Assembly: GCA_965222115.1 (NCBI GenBank)
Contig: CBDCTJ010000007.1
Span: 2,336,001-2,400,000, forward strand
Origin: Planctomycetota bacterium
GTDB lineage: Bacteria; Planctomycetota; PLA2; JAEUHO01
Direction: 5' to 3'
DNA length: 64,000 nucleotides
Below, in pieces: positions 3,088 to 30,076 of this stretch. Under the pieces are notes generated by a model. That model saw nothing but the letters and a program-made list of their open reading frames with translations. It was not told the origin of the DNA and searched no databases. The position numbers and the translations under genes were made by a program. Within the stretch, counting starts at the first letter, position 1. The number at the start of each line of letters is the position of its first letter.

Positions 3088-3308
3088 GGAGTCTCCCGAG
3101 TGGCGACGGCGAACGGAGCAGCGTACAACAAATCGAGCATCCGGAAAGTCCGCCCGGGGGTCCCATCGCGAAGAGCAGAAGGCCGCGGACTCGGTCTCTG
3201 TTGTGCCAAAGTTGGCTATCTAGCTACCCTCCGGCTTCGCGCCCTCCGACCTCAAAGAAGGGCGGCCGTGGCGGGCCTTCTTGATCAGCATGCCGGGCGG
3301 GAGAATTT

Positions 3309-4580
3309 ATGGATCACTTTGTTGTCGAGGGCGGGACGCGACTCAAGGGACGCGCCACCGTCTCGGGAGCAAAGAACGCCGCGTTGCCCCTTTTGGCGGC
3401 AACCCTACTTGCCGAGGGCACCTGTCGGCTGGAACGGGTCCCGCGCTTGCGCGACATCACCAGCATGGTGGACCTACTACGAACGTTGGGTGCCGAGATT
3501 GAGTGGATCGGCGAAAACACACTGGAGATGTGCACGCCGGGCGAAGGACCCTCCGTTGCGCCCTACGAACTGGTCAAGAAGATGCGCGCCTCGATCTGCG
3601 TGCTTGGCCCGCTCCTTGGTCGACGTGCGCAAGCGGGTGTGAGTCTTCCGGGAGGTTGCGTGATTGGGCCGCGACCCGTCGATCTCCATCTCTACGGTCT
3701 TGAGCGCCTTGGCACCACGATTCGAATTGAAGGCGGGACGATTCATGCCGATGGCCGTGCTCTTCGAGGAGCAGGCGACATCTTTCTGGGGGGCCCGTTC
3801 GGACCCACGGTGCTGGGGACGGCCAATGTGCTGTGTGCCGCAGTCAAGAGTCCCGGCGAAACCGTCATTCAAGGCGCCGCCTGTGAACCCGAAATCGCAG
3901 ATCTCGCTCGATTTCTCGTTGCGATGGGGGCGAAGATCACCGGAGTTGGAAGCCCCACCTTGCGGGTGGTGGGCGTGGACCGCCTTGTGGGGGCCACGCA
4001 CCGGGTGATCCCCGATCGCATCGAGGCCGGAACGTTGATTGCTGCCGCCGCGGCCACGCGCGGCGAGGTCACCATCGAGGGACTTGACCCATCTCATTTG
4101 ACGGCGCCGCTACTCTTGCTCGAACGGATGGGCGTGGAACTGGACCGCGTAGGCGAGCAGTCGTTGCGCGTGCGCGGCGATGGATCGTTCGCACCCACCG
4201 ATGTGGTAACCCTGCCGTATCCGGGCTTCCCCACCGATCTCCAGGCGCAGTTCATGGCAATGCTCGCTCTGGCCGAGGGCAATAGCTTTGTGACCGAGAA
4301 GATCTACCCCGAGCGATTTATCCATATTGCCGAGCTTCAGCGCATGGGCGCCCGCATTCGCAAAGAGGGGGCAACGGCCATGGTGCAGGGTGTATCGAGT
4401 CTTCACGGATGTCCGGTCATGGCGTCGGATCTGCGCGCTTCGGCGGCCTTGGTGATTGCCGGGCTCGCGGCCGAGGGCACAACAACGGTGGAACGCGTCT
4501 ATCACATCGACCGCGGCTATGAGCGCATCGAGGAAAAGCTCGCGAGTTTGGGTGCGCGCATCACGCGTCGAAACAGCTAA
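3309..4580 (+). CDS. murA: UDP-N-acetylglucosamine 1-carboxyvinyltransferase
   Basis: SGAKNAALP, LPGGCVIGPRPVDLH (catalytic Cys), PYPGFPTDLQ, DLRASAAL and HIDRGYE motifs. Confidence 0.97.
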   Translation: MDHFVVEGGTRLKGRATVSGAKNAALPLLAATLLAEGTCRLERVPRLRDITSMVDLLRTLGAEIEWIGENTLEMCTPGEGPSVAPYELVKKMRASICVLGPLLGRRAQAGVSLPGGCVIGPRPVDLHLYGLERLGTTIRIEGGTIHADGRALRGAGDIFLGGPFGPTVLGTANVLCAAVKSPGETVIQGAACEPEIADLARFLVAMGAKITGVGSPTLRVVGVDRLVGATHRVIPDRIEAGTLIAAAAATRGEVTIEGLDPSHLTAPLLLLERMGVELDRVGEQSLRVRGDGSFAPTDVVTLPYPGFPTDLQAQFMAMLALAEGNSFVTEKIYPERFIHIAELQRMGARIRKEGATAMVQGVSSLHGCPVMASDLRASAALVIAGLAAEGTTTVERVYHIDRGYERIEEKLASLGARITRRNS

Positions 4581-4780
4581 CGCGGCCAGCTCAAAACCGC
4601 CCCGCGCGAGGCGTTGGGGTCGCTCCAATCCTTTCCGCCCGCTCAGGTGGTGGTTCAATGCTCGGCTACCCCTTGTGGATGCCGATTTCTCCAATTTCGG
4701 GAGATTTTGAGGGCTCATCTGCCCATCTGGCGCCACGGCCGACATGGGTCCCAAAGCCCTATCAAAGGACCGCTCCCGAC

Positions 4781-6184
4781 GTGTTTGACAACCTTGCCAA
4801 GCGCTTTTCCAGCATCTTTTCCGGCCTCGGGTCCGGGAAGCTGACCGAAAAGAACATCGACGAGGGCATCCGCGAGGTTCGTCAGGCCCTTTTAGAAGCC
4901 GACGTAAACCTGCAGGTCGTCAAGTCCTTTATTGACCGCGTTCGTGAGAAGGCGGTCGGCATCAAGACCATCAAGGACGTCCGCCCCGCGGACCAGTTCG
5001 TCAAGATCGTCAAAGACGAAATGGTGCAACTGCTTGGCGGCGACGAGGGCGAGGTACGCACCAAATGGTCGAGCAAGGGGCCCACTGTCATCATGATGGT
5101 CGGGCTTCAAGGAACAGGTAAGACTACTACCACTGCCAAGATTGCGCGCCATCTCAAGCGCAAGGAGATGAAGAAGCCGCTGCTCGTTGCTGCCGATGTG
5201 CAACGCCCGGCTGCCATTGAGCAGCTCAAGATTCTTGGTGAGCAACTTGAGATTCCTGTCCATGCCGAAGCAGGTGGACGACCGCCCAAGATTTGCAAGC
5301 GAGGCGTGAAGCGCGCGGCGGAACTCGGTTGTGATGTCGTGCTCCTCGATACCGCGGGTCGTCTACACATCGACGCCGAGTTGATGGATGAACTCGAAGA
5401 CATTCGCGATGCCGTAAAGCCCGAAGAAATCTGGCTCGTCGTGGATGCGATGCTCGGCCAAGACGCAGTGACAAGCGCCAGCGAGTTCAATCAACGCCTC
5501 GATGTGAGCGGCATCATTCTCACCAAGACCGATGGCGACGCGCGTGGCGGCGCGGCCTTGGCGGTACGCGAAGTTACCGGCAAGACCATTCGCTATGTCG
5601 GCACGGGCGAGAAGCTCGACAAACTGGAACGATTCGTTCCCGAGCGTATGGCTGGCCGCATTCTCGGCATGGGCGATGTCGTCGGCCTTGTCGAGCAGGC
5701 CCAAGAGGTCGTCGATCAAGCTGAAGCCCAGGCGGCCGCCGAACGTCTTGTACGAGACCGCTTCACGCTCGACGACATGATGATGCTCTACGAAAGAATC
5801 GGCAAGATGGGCAATGTCAAAGACCTCATGGCCAAGTTGCCCGGAGGCGCCGCCATGGTGGGCCAAGCGGGCGATGACATGCCCGACAACAAAGACTTCA
5901 CGCGTTACCGCGCCGTCATTCAGTCCATGACGCGCCGGGAACGCTTCGATCCAAAGATTATTCATATGCAGCGCCGGCACAGGATCGCGCGCGGGTGTGG
6001 TCAGCCCGTGGGGGCCGTCAATGAAGTGCTCAAGATGCACAAGGCCATGCGGCAGCAAATGAAGACGCTAAAAAAAAATGGCCTCGTAGGCCGCGTGGCG
6101 GCTGGGGCGATGAAACGTCAGAAGAATAAGCGCATGAAGAAACTGAAGAAAGAAGGGGCGGACTTCCGTGGCTGGTTTAAGTAA
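4781..6184 (+). CDS. ffh: Signal recognition particle protein
   Basis: ALLEADV, GLQGTGKTTT, DTAGR and TKTDGDARGG motifs plus a Met-rich M domain. Start set at GTG 4781 (MFDNL..). Confidence 0.96.
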   Translation: MFDNLAKRFSSIFSGLGSGKLTEKNIDEGIREVRQALLEADVNLQVVKSFIDRVREKAVGIKTIKDVRPADQFVKIVKDEMVQLLGGDEGEVRTKWSSKGPTVIMMVGLQGTGKTTTTAKIARHLKRKEMKKPLLVAADVQRPAAIEQLKILGEQLEIPVHAEAGGRPPKICKRGVKRAAELGCDVVLLDTAGRLHIDAELMDELEDIRDAVKPEEIWLVVDAMLGQDAVTSASEFNQRLDVSGIILTKTDGDARGGAALAVREVTGKTIRYVGTGEKLDKLERFVPERMAGRILGMGDVVGLVEQAQEVVDQAEAQAAAERLVRDRFTLDDMMMLYERIGKMGNVKDLMAKLPGGAAMVGQAGDDMPDNKDFTRYRAVIQSMTRRERFDPKIIHMQRRHRIARGCGQPVGAVNEVLKMHKAMRQQMKTLKKNGLVGRVAAGAMKRQKNKRMKKLKKEGADFRGWFK

Positions 6185-19300: not shown

Positions 19301-21451
19301 ATGACTTGGATTGGATTGCTGCTCATGACGTGCATCTTTGCACCCGCTTCAGCCAAGGAACCTGCGAAGGACGAGAGCTTTGCATACCCCGTGACGCCTC
19401 GAACCGACGTACACGATATGTTGCACGGTGAGCGTGTAGATGATCCGTATCGGTGGTTGGAAGACGACGATGCGCCGGAAGTCATCAAGTGGGACAAGGC
19501 GCAAATGAATGTTGTGCGCAGCACGTTGGATGGTGTCGAGGGACGAGATGCGATTGCTGCGCGCATCGAGGAAGAGTTTGCACTCGACGGCATCGCGTCG
19601 CTCCCACGGTTTTCCGATAAGGCACGTTGGTTTCGTCGTCGCCACAAAGGGCAAAATCACGCCGCCCTGTATAGGACCAATCTTGAAGGCACCGAAAAAC
19701 CCCGTGTCGTCTTGGATCCCAACACGTGGAGCAAAGACGGAACCGAAGGACTCGTGTCGTTCGAGGTGTCGCCCGATGGAAAATACGTGGCGTACTTGCG
19801 CGCCCCCAAGGGATCGGAAAACTCTACGCTCTACATTCGCGACGTGGCAACGGGCCGTGACTTGCCCGAACGCATAGGACGCACGAAATTCTCAAACATA
19901 ATTTGGGATCGCGACAGCCGAGGATTCATGTACTCCCGGATGCCCGATCCCGAACTCGTACCCGCGTCCGAAACGCAACACAACCGGCGCATCTATCACC
20001 ACACGCTCGGCGATGTGCCTATTGATGATCCAATCGTTTGGGGTCGCGGGCGCCCGGCATTGGAATCGAGTTGGTGTTATCGAAGCGCCGACCGAAAGCA
20101 CGTGTATGTGTCCCACGGACTCCCGTATCGTGCGATCAATACGGTTGAAATCGAATGGAATGACGGCACGGCTCGTGAAATTCCGATCATGTCCGATGCG
20201 AAGGACCGCACCTACATCGGACGCAGTGGCGACTACTACGTGCTCAACAGTGACCGGCACGATGGGCGCCGAGAGATTTATGTATCGAAGGTCCAAGAAA
20301 ATCGTGAGCCCGGACCGTGGGAGCGCGTTGCGGTTCCCCCCAGTGAGCGCGGTGCCATCGATAACGTGCACATCGTGGCGGGTCGTCACCTGCTTCTGCA
20401 GGCACGAGACAATGTAGTCAGCTCGCTTTGGGTGATCCCGCTAGAGAGCAAAGACGGCACGCGCAAACGTCGCACGATTGCCCTGCCGAGTCCTGGCACC
20501 GTGTCACGCATCGTGACCCGCGAAGGCGACTCCCGCGTGTGGCTTCGTTTTTCTAGTTACAGCACGCCAGATTCCAACTGGGAAGTCGATCTCGACGATG
20601 AACAGCCCACGACGAGACTCGTGGAGCGGCTACCCACCACGATCGACCTCGATCGACTGGTGAGCGAGCGCCGCATCTACAAGAGCAAGGACGGCACCGA
20701 CGTACCGATTTTCCTATTGAGGCTCCAAGACACGCCACTTGACGGAAGTGCGCCGTGTGTGCTCTACGGATACGGCGGCTTTCGCAACAGCATGACGCCC
20801 CGCTTTGGTCGGGCGTCGGCATTGTGGGCCGAGATGGGCGGCATCTGGGCGGTTGCCTGTATTCGAGGGGGGAGCGAGTTTGGCGAGGCGTGGCACGCGG
20901 CCGGTGCTATGGGCAATAAGCAAAATGTTTTTGACGACTTCATTGCTGCCGCCGATTGGCTGGTGAATGAGAACATCTGCACGCGCGATCGACTTGCCAT
21001 TGCGGGGGGGAGCAACGGCGGTTTGCTCACTGCGGTGTGTGTCAATCAGCGTCCCGACCTCTGTCGCGCTGCGATCAGCGCCGTGCCATTGACCGATATG
21101 CTTCGCTATCACAGGTTTCAATTCGCCAAGTCGTGGACGCTTGAATACGGTGATCCCGACAATCCCAAACACGCCCAATGGTTGCGCAAGTACTCGCCCT
21201 ATCACAACGTGAAGGCCGGCACCGCGTATCCCGCCACGCTGCTGACCGCCGGGCTCCATGACGGTCGCGTCAATGCGCTCCACGCGCGTAAGATGGCCGC
21301 CCAGTGGCAGCATGCCACGACCAGTACCCATCGGCCTATCCTCGTACGAATCGATCGTGAGTCGGGGCACGGGGCCGCCTCCATGAAACAGATGCGGGCT
21401 CAACTGTTGGACCGATTGATGTTCCTCAAACGAGAGCTGGGTGTGCGGTGA
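19301..21451 (+). CDS. Prolyl oligopeptidase (S9A), exported
   Basis: DPYRWLE, LYGYGGF, RGGSEFGEAWH, GGSNGGLL, DGRV and SGHG motifs; signal peptide. Confidence 0.93.
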   Translation: MTWIGLLLMTCIFAPASAKEPAKDESFAYPVTPRTDVHDMLHGERVDDPYRWLEDDDAPEVIKWDKAQMNVVRSTLDGVEGRDAIAARIEEEFALDGIASLPRFSDKARWFRRRHKGQNHAALYRTNLEGTEKPRVVLDPNTWSKDGTEGLVSFEVSPDGKYVAYLRAPKGSENSTLYIRDVATGRDLPERIGRTKFSNIIWDRDSRGFMYSRMPDPELVPASETQHNRRIYHHTLGDVPIDDPIVWGRGRPALESSWCYRSADRKHVYVSHGLPYRAINTVEIEWNDGTAREIPIMSDAKDRTYIGRSGDYYVLNSDRHDGRREIYVSKVQENREPGPWERVAVPPSERGAIDNVHIVAGRHLLLQARDNVVSSLWVIPLESKDGTRKRRTIALPSPGTVSRIVTREGDSRVWLRFSSYSTPDSNWEVDLDDEQPTTRLVERLPTTIDLDRLVSERRIYKSKDGTDVPIFLLRLQDTPLDGSAPCVLYGYGGFRNSMTPRFGRASALWAEMGGIWAVACIRGGSEFGEAWHAAGAMGNKQNVFDDFIAAADWLVNENICTRDRLAIAGGSNGGLLTAVCVNQRPDLCRAAISAVPLTDMLRYHRFQFAKSWTLEYGDPDNPKHAQWLRKYSPYHNVKAGTAYPATLLTAGLHDGRVNALHARKMAAQWQHATTSTHRPILVRIDRESGHGAASMKQMRAQLLDRLMFLKRELGVR

Positions 21452-21816
21452 TGTCTGAGTCTGGCGCAATGCCTGAGACCGCAACGACGCCGCGTGCGAT
21501 TCGACTGGACGTTGCGGATGACCTGCTCGAAATCGCCTGGGCCGATGATCACGTGTCCACCTACTGCGGCGCGTACCTGCGGTGGATTTGCCCGTGCGCC
21601 GACTGCCGTGGGCACTACAAGGGGCAAAAGCCCGACCTGGCGTGGCGTGCTGTTTCCCACGTGACCGTGAGCCATGTTGAGGCGGTGGGCACCTACGCGC
21701 TCCGATTTGATCTTAGCGATCGCCATGAATCAGGCATCTACAGCTATACGCTCCTGCGCGAGCGATGTCCGTCCACGCGAAATGACCTGGACGTACGCGG
21801 ACGACCCAAGACGTAG
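21451..21816 (+). CDS. DUF971 / GBBH-like N-terminal domain protein
   Basis: W.DDH...YLRWICPCADC...VGTYALRFDLSDRHESGIYSY..LR. Confidence 0.88.
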   Translation: MSESGAMPETATTPRAIRLDVADDLLEIAWADDHVSTYCGAYLRWICPCADCRGHYKGQKPDLAWRAVSHVTVSHVEAVGTYALRFDLSDRHESGIYSYTLLRERCPSTRNDLDVRGRPKT

Positions 21817-21977
21817 GCCTCGAAGAGCCCAACAGGAAGCAAACCGCGTCAGCCAATTCGGCCCCGCCTAGTGGGCCCAATTCGTGACCGTCTTTCCGCG
21901 CGGCGGGGTTGATGGTCGATAGTATTCCCATTTCTAGGGCCCCAGCCCTGCACCAGTTCGTCCAACGGAGAAGCACT

Positions 21978-23573
21978 GTGGACCTACAGCTCAACGCAAC
22001 CGCGGTCAAGGGTCTCTCGGCGGTTCATATGAACCTCAGTCGTCCCGAGCTCTACGAGGCCATTGTGACGCGTGGCGAGGCGCAGCTGGCCAAGGGCGGC
22101 GCGATTGCCGCCACGACCGGTGAATACACGGGACGATCCCCCAAAGACAAATACATCGTGTCCACGTCAACCACGGAAAACGTCATTTGGTGGGACGGCA
22201 AAGAAGCGCATCGATTTACTCGCGAGCAATTCGATGCACTTCATAGAAAACAACTCGACTACCTCAAGGGCAAAGAACTTTTCGTGCGTGATTGCTACGC
22301 TGGCGCAGGTGAACAGAATCAAATGCGCGTACGTATTGCAACGGAGCGCGCGTGGCACAACTTGTTTGCGCACAACATGTTTCGGCGAGTGAACGACGCA
22401 GACGTCCTCAAGAATTGGGAGCCTGAGTTTTCGGTGCTTCAGACCCCCGGATTTTCCGCCACGCCCGACGCCGACGACACGCGCTCCGAGGTGTTTGTTG
22501 CGCTCGACTTGGAGCGCCGCCTCGTCATGATCGGCGGCACGCGCTATGCGGGCGAAATCAAGAAGTCGATCTTTACGGCGCTCAATTACCTATTGCCCCT
22601 GAAGGGCGTACTGGGTATGCACTGCTCGGCTAACACGGGAGCCAATGGCGATAGTGCCGTGTTCTTTGGGTTATCGGGCACAGGAAAAACAACGCTCTCG
22701 GCCGATGCATCGCGCGAGTTGATTGGTGATGACGAGCACGGGTGGAGCGATCAGGGCATCTTCAATTTCGAAGGCGGTTGCTACGCCAAAGTGATTCGAT
22801 TGTCACAAGAAGCCGAGCCCGAGATCCATCGCACCACGGGCATGTTCGGCACCATCCTCGAGAACGTTCCGTTCTTCCGAGGCACGCGCATTCCCAACCT
22901 TGACGACGATTCGCTCACCGAGAATACGCGCGCGTCCTATCCGCTGGAGAGCATCGACAACATCGTTGAGTCGGGCACGGGCGGGCACCCCAAGCATGTC
23001 ATTATGCTCACCTGCGATGCGTTTGGCGTGTTGCCACCCGTGGCCATGCTCTCGCCGGAACAGGCGATGTATCACTTCATAAGCGGGTACACGGCCAAAG
23101 TCGCGGGTACCGAGCGGGGCGTCACGGAACCCAAAGCCACGTTCTCCGCATGCTTTGGCGCGCCCTTCATGCCGCTACATCCCGGTCGTTATGCCGAACT
23201 CCTAGGTAAGAAGATCGAAGAACACGGTACCCGTTGCTGGCTGCTCAATACCGGCTGGAGTGGGGGCGCCTATGGCGTTGGATCCCGCATGCCCATACGC
23301 TATTCGCGTGCGCTTTTGAATGCCGCCCTCGCGGGCACCCTCAACGATGTCGAGATGCGCGTCGATCCCACCTTCGGGGTGTCGGTGCCGGTGTCGTGCC
23401 CCGGCGTCCCGGATGAAATCCTCGATCCGCGTAGCGTGTGGGACGACACGTCCGCCTACGACGAAAGGGCCGCCAAGTTGGCGCAGATGTTTCACGAGAA
23501 CTTCAAAGCCTTTGAGGACGGCGTCACGCCTGCAATCCGCAAAGCGGGCCCGCGGGTGGGGGCGGCGGTGTAG
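21978..23573 (+). CDS. pckA: Phosphoenolpyruvate carboxykinase (ATP)
   Basis: TGRSPKDK, YAGEIKKS, MHCSAN, GLSGTGKTTLS, LIGDDEHGW and NFEGGCYAK motifs; GGAG RBS before GTG 21978. Confidence 0.97.
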   Translation: MDLQLNATAVKGLSAVHMNLSRPELYEAIVTRGEAQLAKGGAIAATTGEYTGRSPKDKYIVSTSTTENVIWWDGKEAHRFTREQFDALHRKQLDYLKGKELFVRDCYAGAGEQNQMRVRIATERAWHNLFAHNMFRRVNDADVLKNWEPEFSVLQTPGFSATPDADDTRSEVFVALDLERRLVMIGGTRYAGEIKKSIFTALNYLLPLKGVLGMHCSANTGANGDSAVFFGLSGTGKTTLSADASRELIGDDEHGWSDQGIFNFEGGCYAKVIRLSQEAEPEIHRTTGMFGTILENVPFFRGTRIPNLDDDSLTENTRASYPLESIDNIVESGTGGHPKHVIMLTCDAFGVLPPVAMLSPEQAMYHFISGYTAKVAGTERGVTEPKATFSACFGAPFMPLHPGRYAELLGKKIEEHGTRCWLLNTGWSGGAYGVGSRMPIRYSRALLNAALAGTLNDVEMRVDPTFGVSVPVSCPGVPDEILDPRSVWDDTSAYDERAAKLAQMFHENFKAFEDGVTPAIRKAGPRVGAAV

Positions 23574-23627
23574 CTCGGATCCTTCCGCCGCAATCCGACT
23601 ATTGAATCGCCGAGCGCCGAATTAGCG

Positions 23628-23690
23628 CTTCGCGACCTCGACCGCGTTCGCGCGATGTTGAACGCGCTCGTCCGCCGCTGGAGGGCGTGA
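23628..23690 (+). pseudogene. 3'-terminal fragment of a type-B four-helix bundle gene
   Basis: Encodes LRDLDRVRAMLNALVRRWRA*, nearly identical to the end of 10018-10404 (LRDLDRVRAMLNALIRRWRE*). Confidence 0.8.
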
Positions 23691-23765
23691 GGCACTCTCA
23701 TTCATTCAGCGATTCTCGAAATTTGGTGCCAGGCGCAGATTGCGTGTGTCATCCAGTAGCGCACT

Positions 23766-23822
23766 CCCGTTACCCGAAACCCGTTACCCGTTACCCGACA
23801 CCCGCAACCCGTTACCCGGACT
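23766..23822 (+). repeat. Composite repeat unit 5, left half (heptamers up to the CT insertion point)
   Basis: CCCGTTA-type heptamers ending GTTACCCGGA-CT. Confidence 0.88.
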
Positions 23823-24791
23823 TCTATGAAAGGGCCTGGCATGTCAAGTGCGAAGCCGCGTCGGCGAGCGCATTTACCGCGTTGTGCATGTGTAGTTCGG
23901 CCCCTTGAGTGCGCAACTTACCCTTACCGCCCTTGCCTTTTTGGCAGCGGATCGGGGCGAATCAGATTGCCAGTCATCGTCTCTGGCGCCAGAAAACACG
24001 TCCCATTCAGGCTTCTATGCGCACTCGTGTTGGATCGAAGTTGATGCGACCCGGTGCAAGGTGGGGTCCGAGAACGAGTCTGGGTGCTGCATACTCAGTA
24101 GCGACGTCGCTATACGTCGGTCAGGGCACCGCAGTCACCCGGACTTCTATGAAAGGGCCTGGCATGTCAAGTGCGAAGCCGCGTCGGCGAGCGCATTTAC
24201 CGCGTTGTGCATGTGTAGTTCGGCCCCTTGAGTGCGCAACTTACCCTTACCGCCCTTGCCTTTTTGGCAGCGGATCGGGGCGAATCAGATTGCCAGTCAT
24301 CGTCTCTGGCGCCAGAAAACACGTCCCATTCAGGCTTCTATGCGCACTCGTGTTGGATCGAAGTTGATGCGACCCGGTGCAAGGTGGGGTCCGAGAACGA
24401 GTCTGGGTGCTGCATACTCAGTAGCGACGTCGCTATACGTCGGTCAGGGCACCGCAGTCACCCGGACTTCTATGAAAGGGCCTGGCATGTCAAGTGCGAA
24501 GCCGCGTCGGCGAGCGCATTTACCGCGTTGTGCATGTGTAGTTCGGCCCCTTGAGTGCGCAACTTACCCTTACCGCCCTTGCCTTTTTGGCAGCGGATCG
24601 GGGCGAATCAGATTGCCAGTCATCGTCTCTGGCGCCAGAAAACACGTCCCATTCAGGCTTCTATGCGCACTCGTGTTGGATCGAAGTTGATGCGACCCGG
24701 TGCAAGGTGGGGTCCGAGAACGAGTCTGGGTGCTGCATACTCAGTAGCGACGTCGCTATACGTCGGTCAGGGCACCGCAGTCACCCGGACT
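23823..24791. repeat. Three tandem 323-bp direct repeats (23823-24145, 24146-24468, 24469-24791)
   Basis: ACCCGGACT recurs at 23814, 24137, 24460 and 24783; the units appear identical. Confidence 0.95.
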
Positions 24792-24852
24792 CGAATTGGG
24801 GTACGTGGAAACTGACCTTATCTAATGCTTGCCTAAAGCTGTTGCGCGAGGT
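24469..24852 (-). ncRNA. Putative bridge/seek RNA region downstream of the transposase
   Basis: Location typical of IS1111. Contains a target-like segment (ACCCGG-TG-CAAG-GTGGG-GTCCGA), donor-junction-like segments (TCCCAT and CTTCTATG) and stem-forming sequences. Exact ends unknown. Confidence 0.65.
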
Positions 24853-25902
24853 TCAGGCGGCCACTGGGCATCGAACCGGTATGTACTCTTCGCCTGTTCG
24901 CCACAGCGCAAGCATGAGCACGGAGAGCTTGCGTGCCACGGCGATGACTGCCTTGCGTTTCGCAACTGCGCCTCCACGCGCAATGATCCGCTCACCGTGG
25001 GACTTTAGATCGCATGGCGGGCCCAGTCGCCCGAGGATGTGATGCGCGCACTGAACGAGCAACGACCGAACCATACGGTCCCCAGCCTTCGTTATGCGTA
25101 GCTGCTTGTCCATTTGGCCGGATTGATCACGCCGTGGAACCATCCCGAGAAACGCCCCGACATCTCGGCGGTCTTCAAACCGCGCCCAATCTTGAACGGT
25201 TAACATGAATGCGAGTGCCGTGAGATTGCCCACGCCTGGAATCTGAGTGAGCAACTGTGTATCTGGATATCGCTCGTTCGCCAACTCATCGATCTTTGCG
25301 TCGTAGATCTTTACCAACTCAGTGATTCGCTCGATTGCACCGAGAAGGGGACTAAGCACATCGTAGAGCTCCTCCGGAATCTCGGCCCGCGTCTTCGTTC
25401 CGATGCATTTTGATGCCTGCTTACGCAACCGCCCGCCCATGCTCTTAATGACGCCTCGTAGCGAGTTCACCAACTTGGTTCGTGACGACACAAGCGCGGC
25501 TCGTGCACGAATCAGCGCAAGGTCTCGTTGTGCGGACTCCGGTCGATGCCGAATTGGGGCAAGTAGTTGGGGATCGAAGCGACCGATTTCAGCCAACTTC
25601 TTGGCATCCGTTCGATCGGACTTGCGAGTGTTCCTGTAAATAAAGCTTAGCTCTCGCGGATTCGCGACTAGCGACTGAGCACATCGACCTTCGACGACCC
25701 GACTCGCCCAAGGCGAATGCGTTCCCGCCTCCATCACAACTCGAGCGGTTCGGTGCTTCGATAGAAACTCGTGAAACGATTCGCGCGTTGTCGCTATCTC
25801 GCCTTCTTCCTTCTGAACCCCCGTGTCTTGATCTAAGACGCAATACCAAGAGAATCGGTCGCCTAAGTCGATGCCAATCGTTTCGGTGATACGCTTATGC
25901 AT
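24853..25902 (-). CDS. IS110 family transposase/recombinase
   Basis: TIGIDLG, VMEAG and KSDRTDA (DEDD RuvC-like domain); IPGVG...GMVPRRDQSG...ITKAG; AVARKL; AGGAGGAG RBS. Confidence 0.95.
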   Translation of the reverse strand: MHKRITETIGIDLGDRFSWYCVLDQDTGVQKEEGEIATTRESFHEFLSKHRTARVVMEAGTHSPWASRVVEGRCAQSLVANPRELSFIYRNTRKSDRTDAKKLAEIGRFDPQLLAPIRHRPESAQRDLALIRARAALVSSRTKLVNSLRGVIKSMGGRLRKQASKCIGTKTRAEIPEELYDVLSPLLGAIERITELVKIYDAKIDELANERYPDTQLLTQIPGVGNLTALAFMLTVQDWARFEDRRDVGAFLGMVPRRDQSGQMDKQLRITKAGDRMVRSLLVQCAHHILGRLGPPCDLKSHGERIIARGGAVAKRKAVIAVARKLSVLMLALWRTGEEYIPVRCPVAA

Positions 25903-26001
25903 GCTGGTAGCTCCTCCTGGGCCGTAGAGCCCGCTTATTGTTTGCAGCACGGTTTACCGTGACTGCGCGACAGAGGAGCTACCGGCCTTTTCATCCCATC
26001 T

Positions 26002-26100
26002 CAAGTGTGAGCGTCCGATAGTCGATTCACGCCAGCTCGTGGACGTGGACGTGGACGTGGACGTGGACGTGGACGTGGACGTGGACGTGGACGTGGACGT
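26002..26100 (+). repeat. Composite repeat unit 5, right half: core remainder + (GTGGAC)x10
   Basis: CAAGTGTGAGCGTCCGATAGTCGATTCACGCCAGCTC-(GTGGAC)10, matching unit 4. Confidence 0.9.
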
Positions 26101-26247
26101 CGGAGGCCAAGGGTGGAGCCCTTGAGCCGGAGACCGCTCTCAGCTCCCTTCATGTGAGCAATTCAGCGGCGTGCCGCCACGCAACGTGCCCAGCAGCCAC
26201 CGAATCACGCCCCGAAACGTTTGGGCTCTGCGTCGTTGTGTGACGTA

Positions 26248-27735
26248 CTACCCAGTCAAACTCGGCTTGGCACCAAGGCTCACACCCACGCTCGACTTGT
26301 CAAAGCGCACGTACTCCCATGCGAACTCGTTGCCGTTGATGCCCTTGCGGGGCGGGGCGATCCAACTGGCGATCTTACCGACCTCGAAGACGGGTGTCAT
26401 GAGGCTCTTGACATAGGCCTGGTCACTGCTGCCGGGGAGCCATGCGTCGCGGTTTTTGTTGAACTCGTCCTCGGTGACGGGCTCGCCTTTGGGATCGAAA
26501 TGGCCTGCGCTGTAGATGCCCATGTTGCGGTGGAAGCGGCGGTGGGGGAGCTCGAATCGGAAGTCAATCTTCTCCTTCTCAAGGATTCGATTCCAACGGC
26601 CCACGACAAATACGCAGTCGCCAATGTAGCCGTCGCGCAGCACTTCATTCATGGCGTTGCGCAGCGGTACCTGCTCCGTGGTCAGCGACACCTTGGTGCC
26701 GCCATTCTTGGTAGGGACTTGCATCTCGTAGGCGCCTTCCAATGCCTTATGGTCTTCGTACTTTGATTCTTTGTAGCGACCCTTGAGGCCATTGGCGAAG
26801 TACACGGATGCGTTGTTGCTGATCTCGCCGCCAAAGAGATTGACCGAAGAACTAAACCAACGATTGATGTAGCGCTGAATGGTCGGCAAATCGATCACGC
26901 CCTGCTGGCGCAGCTTCTCGGGATCGTCGGTCTTGAGTTCATTCATGGCTTCTGCGGTGCGTTGAATCACACGTCCCACGCCCGTCTCGCCCACAAACAT
27001 GTGGTGGGCCTCCTCGGTGAGCATGAATTGCGTGGTGCGGGCAAGGGGGTCTAGGCCCGATTCGGAGAGCGCAAGCAATTGGAACTTGCCGTCGCGGTCG
27101 GTAAACGTCGTAAACATGAAGAACGAGAGCCAGTCTTCCACCGGCTCATTAAACGTGCCCAGGATGCGCGGCGAATCTTCGTGACCGCTACGGCGCCGCA
27201 AGAGATCGTCGGCCTCTTCACGACCATCACGTCCAAAGTGCGTGTGAAGCAGGTACACCATGGCCCACAAGTGTCGCCCTTCTTCAACATTCACCTGAAA
27301 GAGGTTGCGCAAGTCATACAAACTCGGCGCGGTCTGCCCCAAGAGACGCTGCTGTTCGACGCTGGCCGGTTCCGTATCGGCTTGTGTCACAATGATGCGA
27401 CGGAGCGCATTCCGGTATTCGCCGGGAACCTTCTGCCACGCGGGTTGACCCGCGAAATCACCGCAAGGAATCGTGCGGTCCACCTCCTGGGGCTGTAGGA
27501 AAATGCCCCAGCGATAATCGGGCATTTTGACGTAGCCAAATTGTGCCCATCCATCGCGACCCACGTCGATTGCGGTGCGCAGATAGATGTCATCTGCTTG
27601 GAACCCCTCAGGCCCCATTTCTTTCCACCAATCGACAAAGTGGGGTTGCCACGCCTCAAGGGCGCGCTGCAACCGTCGGTCATCTTTTAGACCAACGTTG
27701 TTGGGAATCTTGGCATTAAGGTCCACATTGCCCAT
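26248..27735 (-). CDS. boxB: Benzoyl-CoA 2,3-epoxidase subunit B
   Basis: KIPNNV, WW..MGP.GFQ, QADTEPASVEQQ, VNVEEGRHLWAM and MLTEEAHHMFVG diiron motifs. Confidence 0.95.
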   Translation of the reverse strand: MGNVDLNAKIPNNVGLKDDRRLQRALEAWQPHFVDWWKEMGPEGFQADDIYLRTAIDVGRDGWAQFGYVKMPDYRWGIFLQPQEVDRTIPCGDFAGQPAWQKVPGEYRNALRRIIVTQADTEPASVEQQRLLGQTAPSLYDLRNLFQVNVEEGRHLWAMVYLLHTHFGRDGREEADDLLRRRSGHEDSPRILGTFNEPVEDWLSFFMFTTFTDRDGKFQLLALSESGLDPLARTTQFMLTEEAHHMFVGETGVGRVIQRTAEAMNELKTDDPEKLRQQGVIDLPTIQRYINRWFSSSVNLFGGEISNNASVYFANGLKGRYKESKYEDHKALEGAYEMQVPTKNGGTKVSLTTEQVPLRNAMNEVLRDGYIGDCVFVVGRWNRILEKEKIDFRFELPHRRFHRNMGIYSAGHFDPKGEPVTEDEFNKNRDAWLPGSSDQAYVKSLMTPVFEVGKIASWIAPPRKGINGNEFAWEYVRFDKSSVGVSLGAKPSLTG

Positions 27736-27806
27736 GGGGTGCTCCGCGTTTCAATCGGTGATTTCGTATTCGAGTAATTTCGCATTCGAACACATGTCGT
27801 TCGCCC

Positions 27807-29513
27807 TTAGGTCCGGTTCCAGTCAAAGACCGGACGTTCCGGCCGGCCATAGAGCGTTAAGGCGCCCTGTTCGCCAACCGCGTTGGGCCGTTGGAAGATC
27901 CAGTTTTGCCACGCCGAGAGCCGACCAAAGATCTTGGTCTCCAACGTTTCCGGGCCGGCAAAACGCAAGTTGGCTTCCATACCAGTCAATGCGTCGGGCG
28001 AAAGGCTGGCGCGCTCTTCAATCGCGATGCGCACCTCATCCTCGTAGTCGATGTCGTCCGGCGAAAGCGTAACAAGCCCTGCTTCCTCAGCCGCGCGAGC
28101 ATCCCACGTGCCGTCATGTGCTAACGCGGCTTTGAGTGCCTCTGCGCCGCCCAGGAAACGGGTTTCCAAGCGCGTCAAGCCATTGGACATGGGCAGGGGG
28201 CCGCGGTTGAGCGCCGAAAGCTGAATGCTGTTGGGGGCATCGGGATCATCCAGCATGTAACTTCGATCACAGGCCAGCGTGAGTTCGAAAAGCGAACCCA
28301 CGAAACACGAGCCGGGCTCGATCAATGCGAATGCACTGCGCGCCGTTAGGTCGAGGCGTTTCCATACGCGCTTGAGCGTCATCAGCGACTCGAACACAAA
28401 CCAGTCTGTCGCCGCATGCTCGTCAAGAAACGCATCATGCGCCAGAACCTGTGCCGCATCGCCCTCTGTCTTGATCACCAACGTACCAATGTCGGGTCGA
28501 TTGAATCTCAGATCCAAGAGGACATCATCGAGTTCACGGGCCATGCGAAGCGGCCAATAGGTGGTGGCCTGCTTGCGTGCGCCCGCTGCGTCGGTAGGCG
28601 GTACGTCGGAAGGACCCCGGATCACAATGGTGCCGACGCGATCATCAATGGTGAGCGACACGAGCGAATGCGTTACGCCGGTAGCGTCGTAGATGCCCTC
28701 CAAGGGTGGCAGGCCAACGCCTTTGCCCGAGCGTCCACGCGGCGCGTCGTCATCCGCATGCGACGCAACGACTTCCTCGATACGTTTGCCAAACCGGCTC
28801 GACGGAACCGATTCATCGACCAAGCCCCATGATGCGGCGCGTTTTCCTTTGACACCCTCGGCGACCGTACTGAATACGTCGGCCAAGTCGCGGCGTACTT
28901 TGCGCTTGTCCACCAGTCGCGTCAGTCCGCCCGTCCCTGGCAATACGGCGAGCAAAGGCACCTCGGGAAGGCTCACTGCCGTGCTTCCGTCGTCTTGCAA
29001 AATGATCTCGTCGCACGCCATGGCGAGTTCGTAGCCGCCACCGGCGCACGTACCCTTGAGAGATGCAACGGTGTGAATGCCGCATTCGTCTGCCATGTCT
29101 TCGAGATACAGGCGCGTTTCGTTGGTGAACTTGCAGAAGTTCACTTTGAAGCCGTGTGTGGACGAGCAAAGCATATTGATGTTGGCGCCTGCACAAAAGA
29201 TGCCGGCAACGGCACTCTCCACCAGCAACAGGCGTACGTCCGGATGTTCAAAGCGAAGGCGGCGAATCACGTCAGCCAGTTCGATATCCACGCTCAAGTC
29301 GTAGGAGTTTAGCTTGAGTTCGTAGCCGGGCCGCAGCCCCTCATTCGGTTGCACATTCATGCCAAGGCGAGCGACATGACCATCGACACTGAACACCCAA
29401 TGCTGGTAGTGTTCAGGCGAGGATTCGAATCGAACCGGCGCGACCGCCGCATTGTAATTCGTTGCGTCGGAGACCGTTGCAGCATCCGACGATACAGAGG
29501 TTGTTGTACTCAT
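27807..29513 (-). CDS. boxC: 2,3-epoxybenzoyl-CoA dihydrolase
   Basis: LKLNSYDL, KVNFCKFTNETR, LPEVPLLAVLPGTGG and RLSAWQNWIFQRPNAVG motifs; tandem crotonase folds. Confidence 0.95.
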   Translation of the reverse strand: MSTTTSVSSDAATVSDATNYNAAVAPVRFESSPEHYQHWVFSVDGHVARLGMNVQPNEGLRPGYELKLNSYDLSVDIELADVIRRLRFEHPDVRLLLVESAVAGIFCAGANINMLCSSTHGFKVNFCKFTNETRLYLEDMADECGIHTVASLKGTCAGGGYELAMACDEIILQDDGSTAVSLPEVPLLAVLPGTGGLTRLVDKRKVRRDLADVFSTVAEGVKGKRAASWGLVDESVPSSRFGKRIEEVVASHADDDAPRGRSGKGVGLPPLEGIYDATGVTHSLVSLTIDDRVGTIVIRGPSDVPPTDAAGARKQATTYWPLRMARELDDVLLDLRFNRPDIGTLVIKTEGDAAQVLAHDAFLDEHAATDWFVFESLMTLKRVWKRLDLTARSAFALIEPGSCFVGSLFELTLACDRSYMLDDPDAPNSIQLSALNRGPLPMSNGLTRLETRFLGGAEALKAALAHDGTWDARAAEEAGLVTLSPDDIDYEDEVRIAIEERASLSPDALTGMEANLRFAGPETLETKIFGRLSAWQNWIFQRPNAVGEQGALTLYGRPERPVFDWNRT

Positions 29514-29562
29514 TGGCAATCATGCTACGGCCCGTCGGAAGGGGAGCGAACTTCGTCACCAT

Positions 29563-29621
29563 GGTGAACACTTGTGCAATGAAATGGTGGTGTTGGCGAA
29601 TGGAGGTGAACACTTGTGCAA
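29563..29621. promoter_or_regulatory. Perfect 17-bp direct repeat upstream of boxC (candidate BoxR/BzdR-type operators)
   Basis: GGTGAACACTTGTGCAA at 29563 and 29605 (42-bp period); contains TGAA-N6-TGCA. Confidence 0.55.
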
Positions 29622-30076
29622 CGCGAGTTGGTTCCATCGATATGGATTCGGGGGGCGGGCTCGATGCGCCCAATCTCGGTTGCTCTTTGCCCTGTCCCAC
29701 ACCGCGGTCAGCGGCGAAGATCGTGCGAACGCGCTCGCAAAGTGTCAATTGCTCCTGCACACAGTGCAAAGAAAACGTACTTCTTGGAGCACGACTCCTA
29801 CGATTCACATGGCTCAAGTCCGATAGAAATTGTAGCGAACCTCACTTGATGGGCTTTGCAGGCGTTGCGTACAACTGCGATCAAGGTACGCGCTACCCGC
29901 GTGATAGGTTATTGTTCGTATATATATCCGGCATATTCGTTGCTTGTTGCCACTTGGACTCCACTGACGGTCGCAAGATCGTCGATAGGAGTTCATCCGG
30001 CGATTTCGGCGACCCGATCCCGTCCGGCTGCCTAGATCGCGCGCTACACGAGTGGCCTGCAACTGGAGTCGCAAGT

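Follow-up and report, generated by a model that had tools for sequence, protein, structure and literature searches.

What could place the non-coding end of an insertion sequence three times in tandem behind a single transposase gene: the recombinase encoded by the element itself, or a duplication at a short repeat in which that enzyme took no part? The question is raised by a locus in the window (i.e. the whole 64,000-nucleotide stretch of DNA analysed here), which is part of contig C7 of a Planctomycetota genome of 4.55 Mb in 7 contigs.

A tripled end in an IS1111-group element

In its canonical form the element spans 1533 bp, counting one CT core (24469..26001, minus strand), and is made up of left end, transposase gene, bridge-RNA module, spacer and right end. 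The gene, an open reading frame at 24853..25950 on the minus strand, encodes a DEDD transposase/recombinase of 365 aa with the domains DEDD_Tnp_IS110 (PF01548, 2.6e-18, residues 25-170) and Transposase_20 (PF02371, 4.4e-22, residues 232-309); the closest relatives found are 45-50% identical at the protein level. The single-unit form carries 49 nt of non-coding sequence upstream of the gene (25951-25999) and 384 nt downstream (24469-24852). The left subterminal inverted repeat ATGAAAAGGCC (25984..25994, minus strand) is complementary at 10 of 11 positions to its partner GGCCCTTTCAT, which lies at 24472-24482 and again at 24149-24159 and 23826-23836; the two are located 5 and 3 nt from the element ends, and the same subterminal repeat position was found in 16 of the 18 homologous loci tested. 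The genome contains three full copies: copy A at the array locus, copy B (C7:506882-508415) and copy C (C3:484746-486278), the transposases of the latter two being 97.5-97.8% identical to that of copy A. A core dinucleotide, CT on the plus strand and AG in gene orientation, is present at both ends of all three. At copy A the far core (26000..26001, plus strand) marks the end common to the three copies, host sequence resuming at 26002 (CAAGTGTGAGCG...), and at the other side the element abuts the host flank GTTACCCGGACT (23811..23822, plus strand), which includes the core CT at 23821-23822 and is part of a host repeat that we call REP-A. The element belongs to the IS1111 group of the IS110 family, which is characterized by an extended non-coding stretch behind the gene (PMC11208160; PMC11187229) and by subterminal inverted repeats of 7-17 bp (PMC11208160): besides the DEDD domains, it shows the long downstream and short upstream non-coding parts and subterminal repeats within that size range, lacks a classical target duplication, has an identical core dinucleotide at either end and inserts site-specifically, copies B and C residing in one repeat family.

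Tandem Repeats Finder (TRF) detected one array at 23814-24791, with a period of 323, 3.0 copies, 100% matches, no indels and a score of 1956. Direct string comparison agreed, 23823-24145, 24146-24468 and 24469-24791 being the same base for base, so that the three identical 323-bp units reported by the initial annotation stand with their coordinates. Each unit has TCTATGAAAGGGCC at its start and GTCACCCGGACT at its end. Unit 1 (23823..24145, minus strand) is the outermost, abuts the host flank and contains a full bridge-RNA module, the spacer and the right subterminal inverted repeat; unit 2 (24146..24468, minus strand) is identical to the others; and unit 3 (24469..24791, minus strand) is the sole unit of the canonical element, copies B and C aligning from 24469 on with a single unit each. 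At every junction the right end of the element is followed by the core dinucleotide and TCCGGGTGAC, which reads CATAGA-AG-TCCGGGTGAC between units in gene orientation, the order of the locus being left end, transposase, AATTCG-AG-unit-AG-unit-AG-unit-AG-TCCGGGTAAC. The earlier description of the inner junctions as IS end, core and a look-alike of the flank holds for all of them, as does the match at 12 of 13 positions between the inner GTCACCCGGACTC (24780-24792) and the local target (GTTACCCGGACT at 23811-23822, then C at 26002). On the other hand, nothing in the array resembles the collection of different guides that had been envisaged, since the three units differ at no base.

The array is a real feature which arose in place at copy A. 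We regard it as highly improbable that one unit, or some other number of units, is present at the true locus and that the assembly is at fault. The units are identical, and their number rests on the assembly; the public runs containing the stretch (4 runs with short assembled contigs, none of them listed as RNA) come from one study, may be the source of the assembly and include no contig that spans the array. Nonetheless, a genome in 7 contigs, one of them of 3.07 Mb, suggests long-read sequencing, and such reads would cover the 969 bp of the array; the junctions lie at a mechanistically meaningful position that an artefact would not select. Assemblers, moreover, collapse exact tandem repeats more often than they expand them. 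One of these runs (X1) contains a 51-nt contig matching 24439-24489 with 0 mismatches, which leaves 30 and 21 letters on either side of the unit/unit junction and is too short for the 31+31 bridging rule; contig depths in this run (11 for the unit, 6.63 for the transposase part and 3.1 for the host flank) are unusable as copy numbers. The last 30 bases of a 1266-nt contig in another run (X4) equal 24789-24818, and the DNA before them is unrelated, the switch falling within one base of the inner AG/CT core. This contig may stem from a different strain of the sample, in which either the transposase part lacks the unit or a relative carries a different RNA module; no junction of this type is present in the assembly.

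The bridge RNA and its guide code

Twenty loci from public MAGs of several phyla, encoding relatives that are 35-50% identical over the best tblastn segment, were compared. Behind the gene their sequences can be aligned for some 160 nt, and RNAalifold predicted two helices in this alignment. Over 15 pairs and 14 sequences, 98.1% of the cells are paired, as against 22-46% when the partners are slid, and the covariation score of 0.449 (at most 0.107 in the controls) was reached in 0 of 500 shuffles. A covariance model derived from 13 homologous sequences, leaving out the element under study, gave five full-length matches in the DNA searched, one in copy B, one in copy C and three in the array (23993-24153 and 24316-24476 with 76.7 bits each, and 24639-24799 with 79.2 bits), the next best match having 10.5 bits. 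Each unit is therefore a complete RNA module, and the bridge-RNA-bearing end of an IS110-family element had been rightly recognized in the initial annotation. In units 1 and 2 the junction sequence, as we read it, costs the two outermost pairs of the extended stem, their scores staying at 76.7 bits, and a single-sequence fold predicted the same long basal stem. A search of 20000-30000 against Rfam at E values up to 1 retrieved no bridge-RNA family, the sole match being a chance one to the HIV-1 splice donor (E 0.97). Scanning 23600-26200 for promoters and terminators revealed no promoter-like site and two terminator-like sites, both on the plus strand and none on the minus strand.

The inner breakpoint site coincides with one of the predicted helices. 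Its RNA-sense sequence CG-AG-TCCGGGTGACTGCG (24776..24793, minus strand), with the core AG (CT on the plus strand) at 24790-24791, provides the 5' strand of P1, the basal stem of the target-binding stem-loop, and GCAGCACCCAGACTCG (24721..24736, minus strand) provides the 3' strand. Of the 10 modelled P1 pairs, 5 show compensatory changes in five to seven sequences each. The look-alike CG-AG-UCCGGGUGACUGCG is thus a paired stem strand with compensatory changes across 14 sequences and not the guide segment for which it had been taken; this pairing rules out its acting as the target guide and, on inspection, the same stretch in homologues mismatches their own flanks. Furthermore, TCCGGGTGAC is the consensus of the P1 stem across homologues and was hence not copied from the host.

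The guides reside in the loops between the helices. We located the ends of homologous elements by their subterminal repeats and compared their flanks with the inter-helix loops, column by column of the alignment, in 8 homologues with own or swapped flanks. The 3' side of the first loop carries five left-target bases and AG, three bases before the stem (own flanks 4.12/5, swapped 1.70/5), the AG being at a fixed register in 13 of the 14 aligned sequences, and the 5' side carries the complement of the first seven right-target bases (6.0/7 against 3.46/7). In the second loop, the 5' side complements the left end with weak concordance (5.0/7 against 3.93/7) and the 3' side repeats the right end plus AG, an arrangement that co-varies in the homologue L012 (AUGGCAG with CATGGCAG). 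In the element under study, the 5' side of the target loop, GCCCUGA(CC) (24765..24773, minus strand), would complement the core and a right target TCAGGGC, with 7/7 at C7:69874 and 5/7 at both the local flank and the inner site; its 3' side, CUACUG-AG-U (24739..24747, minus strand), has the same sense as the left target and core. The 5' side of the donor loop, ACCCCACCU (24705..24713, minus strand), is partly complementary (5/7) to the core and the left end ATGGGAT, and its 3' side, CAUAGAAG (24658..24665, minus strand), equals the right end plus core at 8/8 positions, being, as DNA, an inner copy of the right-end half-site. Reading the right-target guide as UGCC-CU, an alternative that would suit copy B, was dropped because the family register (guide, two core-position letters, inner hairpin) yields a 7/7 genomic match in the context of the repeat family described below. 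Reprogrammed guides in copies B and C were likewise rejected, given that they show zero differences between 24629 and 24819.

The modelled architecture is that of a bridge/seek RNA whose guides come in the opposite order to those of IS621, a feature reported for IS1111-type elements (PMC11187229). The element shares with the seekRNA elements ISEc11, ISPa11 and ISKpn4 (PMC11187229) and with the bridge-RNA element IS621 (PMC11208160) a DEDD transposase and short RNA segments that match both target strands and overlap at the core; with the former it further shares the long downstream non-coding region, the subterminal repeats and the guide order. For our element no Rfam family was matched, and its RNA model, built on 14 sequences, is new. 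Two homologues from different contigs of one Verrucomicrobiae MAG (L018 and L019) have identical bridge-RNA modules; the site of the first matches both target guides (5/5 and 7/7) and the flanks of the second match, on inspection, neither of them, which makes it a natural off-target insertion in a homologue.

Cognate and half-matched sites in host repeats

The loops of the element predict the target TACTG-AG-TCAGGGC, which occurs in the genome at 4 sites with at most one mismatch and at 16 with two. Several of these sites continue into ...AAATCCACAC..., a sequence outside the query that equals the flank of copies B and C, and a wider genome scan revealed that they belong to a family with many copies, GATACGG-(T/A)G-TACGGGCAAAATCCACACTTTTC, here called REP-T. 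Judged by its sequence, REP-T is the cognate target of the element. The best REP-T site scores 4/5 in the left arm and 7/7 in the right arm; copy C scores 4/5 and 4/7, and copy B scores 4/5 in the left arm, its right arm lacking four bases relative to the family. REP-T copies, often clustered and REP-like, lie at C7:69874, C7:641845-653135, C7:2273503-2284303, C3:482367-488562 and elsewhere. In most of them the core position is occupied by TG and not by AG, a difference that may shield them from insertion. Measured against the REP-T consensus, the right-target flank of copy B (C7:506860-506881) is short of the four bases TCAG/TACG; it looks as though its two junctions arose at separate AG dinucleotides with a spacing of 4 bp, or as though a small deletion came later.

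Copy A resides in a different repeat. The sequence of REP-A, ...CGCTCACACTTG-AG-TCCGGGT(G/A)ACGGG followed by heptad repeats, is found with TTGAGTCCGGGT in 14 unoccupied copies, and the 13-mer GAGTCCGGGTGAC, which is present inside the element, occurs in 8 unoccupied REP-A copies as against 0.14 expected by chance. Scored against the guides, the REP-A flank of copy A reaches 2/5 in the left arm and 5/7 in the right arm, and the inner site 1/5 and 5/7, both right-arm matches being in the register of the perfect REP-T match. Since core plus one arm are matched at either place, the two qualify as half-sites in the sense of Xie et al. (10.64898/2026.08.31.748434); what flank and inner site have in common is only the core and this 5/7 right-arm match to the guide. 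The sequence called the real target at the array locus is accordingly not the cognate one: the guides specify REP-T, which flanks copies B and C, and the locus is a REP-A half-site. REP-A itself is a complex host repeat, extending over 23611-23822 and 26002-26105 of the window and recurring at least 14 more times on C7, within the interval from 2.27 to 2.95 Mb; its conserved block is bordered by a run of GGGTNAC heptads and, at the opposite edge, by a (CGTGGA)n hexamer array (26038-26100, 10.5 copies). A paralogous empty site is found at C7:2846574-2846835.

Possible origins of the array

We lean, by a small measure, towards a half-match recombination between the right-end junction and the inner half-site, carried out by the element's own recombinase, as the origin of the array. 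Such an exchange would involve two sites in direct orientation, the right-end junction RE-AG-TCCGGGTAAC (in transposase orientation) and the inner partner AATTCG-AG-TCCGGGTGAC, located 323 bp upstream within the DNA for stem P1. Both have the core dinucleotide and the same right arm (5/7 to the target guide), and the right-end junction further contains the donor half-site CATAGA-AG, read 8/8 by the donor loop; the recombinase-RNA complex would catalyse the half-match exchange. The unit could have been duplicated in place by exchange between sister chromosomes or, by a second route, a 323-bp partial circle could have been excised and reinserted alongside its source; a third unit could then have been gained through the same reaction or through ordinary homologous recombination between the 323-bp repeats. 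The outcome is that three complete bridge-RNA genes stand in tandem downstream of a single transposase gene, possibly with an effect on RNA dosage.

Several observations favour this half-match exchange. The unit junctions lie exactly at the core beside the authentic right end, which a host microhomology event would have no reason to abut. The coincidence of flank and inner site is unlikely by chance, because, in 20,000 trials, a random word of the form 'AG + 7-mer' was present somewhere on this strand of the element in only 0.62% of cases. The REP-A insertion, in turn, shows that the complex accepts the half-site AG-TCCGGGT. All junctions keep the left-donor match without a right-donor match, CATAGA-AG (8/8 to the donor guide) being followed by TCCGGGT, which fits the left-end guide at 4/7 positions versus 5/7 for the true left end; this is the configuration reported for IS110 tandem units in a 2026 preprint by Hu et al. 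(10.64898/2026.08.14.744561). A second inner half-site was also used in the lineage: two fragments on contig C1, 92-93% identical, begin exactly after the AG of the donor-guide DNA CATAGA-AG and run to the right end, with a left flank of REP-T, i.e. cognate, type (GATACCA-AG); lying in a local duplication, the two probably record one event. Further support comes from ISPpu9, an AG-core relative that makes transposase-dependent circles of sub-modules (PMC12288879).

On the other hand, a route in which the recombinase takes no part is conceivable, if on the unlikely side: slippage or another microhomology-based duplication on the 9-bp direct repeat ACCCGGACT, followed by RecA-dependent unequal exchange from two units to three. 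This repeat brackets the unit (12/13 with one mismatch) and is perfect only at copy A, the flanks of copies B and C sharing with the inner site the core only or 8/9 bases, which directly explains why copy A alone was expanded; from a homology-driven event one would expect single units in B and C, as is the case. Replication slippage on the shared AGTCCGGGT would yield the same junction, and a scan of very many windows would presumably favour rare insertions whose flank equals an inner word. Nevertheless, the microhomology would have to abut the element end in the core register by chance, for which the above frequency applies (AG plus 7 bases), and simple arithmetic anticipates several other chance 9-bp repeats within a few kb. 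Established bacterial genetics also regards duplication on 9 bp as rare. At IS110 loci, moreover, left-donor-only tandem units are reported to be enriched over shuffled controls (10.64898/2026.08.14.744561). Self-targeting by the recombinase and slippage on ACCCGGACT had both been proposed for this locus from the outset and both are live mechanisms; the former is preferred here as a half-match reaction, its self-target being a half-site in stem P1 instead of a cognate one.

A full circular copy might alternatively have inserted into the inner half-site of a resident copy, generating the order transposase-transposase-unit-unit, after which the 1.2-kb transposase parts would have recombined with loss of one of them and a further round would have led to three units. 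This scheme has the merit that, for IS621 insertion in vitro, a native donor junction and a single half-site on the partner DNA suffice (10.64898/2026.08.31.748434). We consider it very unlikely, however, for it demands more steps, leaves unexplained why the array is at the sole copy whose flank equals the inner site when all three copies contain that site, and finds no copy with two transposase parts in the assembly.

The half-match exchange by the element's own recombinase has also to be weighed against observations that speak against it. Enzyme-made and slippage junctions would be the same product, and sequence alone does not name the enzyme; inner site and flank match the guides in part, with 1-2/5 in the left arm. 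Tandem non-coding ends are absent from all 20 homologous loci retrieved, and copies B and C, in which the initial annotation had suggested looking for tandem ends and diverging guides, show a single unit without change over 24629-24819 and were not expanded although both carry the same inner site. Neither the reciprocal product (a transposase part without the unit) nor a solo unit was found in the assembly. The reports on half-match recombination and tandem units are, besides, preprints dealing with the IS110 group.

Comparison with these reports places the array among known phenomena. Hu et al. described tandem non-coding repeat units beside IS110 transposases (n = 468) with left-donor-only boundaries and interpreted them as half-match reactions resolved in place (10.64898/2026.08.14.744561). 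They required at least two adjacent same-strand copies of units of at least 50 bp and at least 95% identity, confirmed by TRF and with ULTRA as a second caller (10.64898/2026.08.14.744561); by TRF alone, our array has 3.0 copies of 323 bp with 100% identity. Like those units, ours lie on the same strand, are identical, adjoin the transposase gene and show only the left-donor (right-end) half-site at their boundaries. They differ in that the unit is the whole bridge-RNA gene of an IS1111-type element, with the RNA downstream of the gene, and in that the second boundary can be assigned, as core plus right-target half-site in stem P1, equal to the host flank; the word IS1111 is absent from the main text of that preprint (10.64898/2026.08.14.744561). 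According to Xie et al. (bioRxiv, September 2026), IS621 recombines substrates that match the core and one arm only, a property that explains both its insertion at off-target sites and an excision in which no target is recognized (10.64898/2026.08.31.748434). Such behaviour fits both the off-family insertion at the array locus and the use of the inner site, with the difference that the demonstration concerned an IS110-group element, in vitro and in E. coli, whereas our case is one of sequence with an arm match of 5/7, not a perfect one.

ISPpu9 and MITEPpu9 of Pseudomonas putida KT2440 offer a further comparison, having an AG core, REP-type targets and transposase-dependent sub-module circles, with some ssr9 modules in tandem in other strains and ssr9 being dispensable for transposition (PMC12288879). 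The AG core and the REP-type targets are common to our element. MITEPpu9 has, however, a copy of an end box at either side (A' and B'), whereas the array unit has the right end and the right subterminal repeat only: the exact left subterminal repeat occurs once, at 25984-25994, and the other edge of the unit is the target-type half-site TCCGGGTGAC instead of a left-end copy. In addition, ssr9 is not needed for transposition and the array unit is a guide-RNA gene. A non-exhaustive literature search retrieved no published case of a tripled bridge-RNA gene in an IS1111-type element.

The array is hence a well-resolved natural case of the local expansion described in 2026 for the IS110 family and not a new kind of system. 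What it adds is that both breakpoints are assigned to the base, that the RNA model and guide code were derived independently for a little-studied IS1111-type lineage, and that one right-arm half-site would explain both why the element inserted outside its target family and how its guide-RNA gene was afterwards amplified. Should the enzyme be responsible, the locus would lend natural support to half-match recombination outside the IS110 group and would warn users of bridge recombinases that a cassette for guide-RNA expression can hold usable half-sites; should slippage be responsible, it would be an ordinary unstable duplication. It is tempting to go further and to speculate, doubtful as we hold the idea to be, that bridge-RNA DNA carries half-sites for its own recombinase-RNA complex, guide-RNA genes thus being intrinsically self-amplifying and arrays the first step to divergent multi-bridge-RNA elements. 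Guides of the same sense would be literal copies of end or target halves (such as CATAGA-AG, the edge of the C1 fragments), and stems would mimic near-cognate target arms (AG-TCCGGGTGAC). If true, self-amplifying guide genes would open a natural route to multi-guide arrays and to divergence towards new targets.

Tandem repeats of 77-82 bp are present a few hundred bases past the right end of three Myxococcaceae copies of a homologous element (L022 4688-4883, L024 4198-4357 and L029 4199-4466). These repeats, as well as a 45-bp repeat in L025, fall outside the elements and were discarded as tandem non-coding ends; the Myxococcaceae arrays are probably host repeat arrays serving as landing sites. 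The C1 region (L008, G000 C1:598500-606500) contains, at approximately 3128-3586 and 4588-5070, two copies of a small transposase gene bracketed by 31-nt inverted repeats, whose product we take to be of the Y1 type (REP-associated, IS200-like), and adjacent to these genes are the two right-end fragments together with two decayed IS110-type left-end remnants (C1:600989-601147 and 617015-617095). In four related genomes (G008, G013, G018 and G025) DNA similarity to the element begins at query base 186 and covers the bridge-RNA module and the gene, omitting the last 185 bp by the right end, which is the part that occurs alone on C1.
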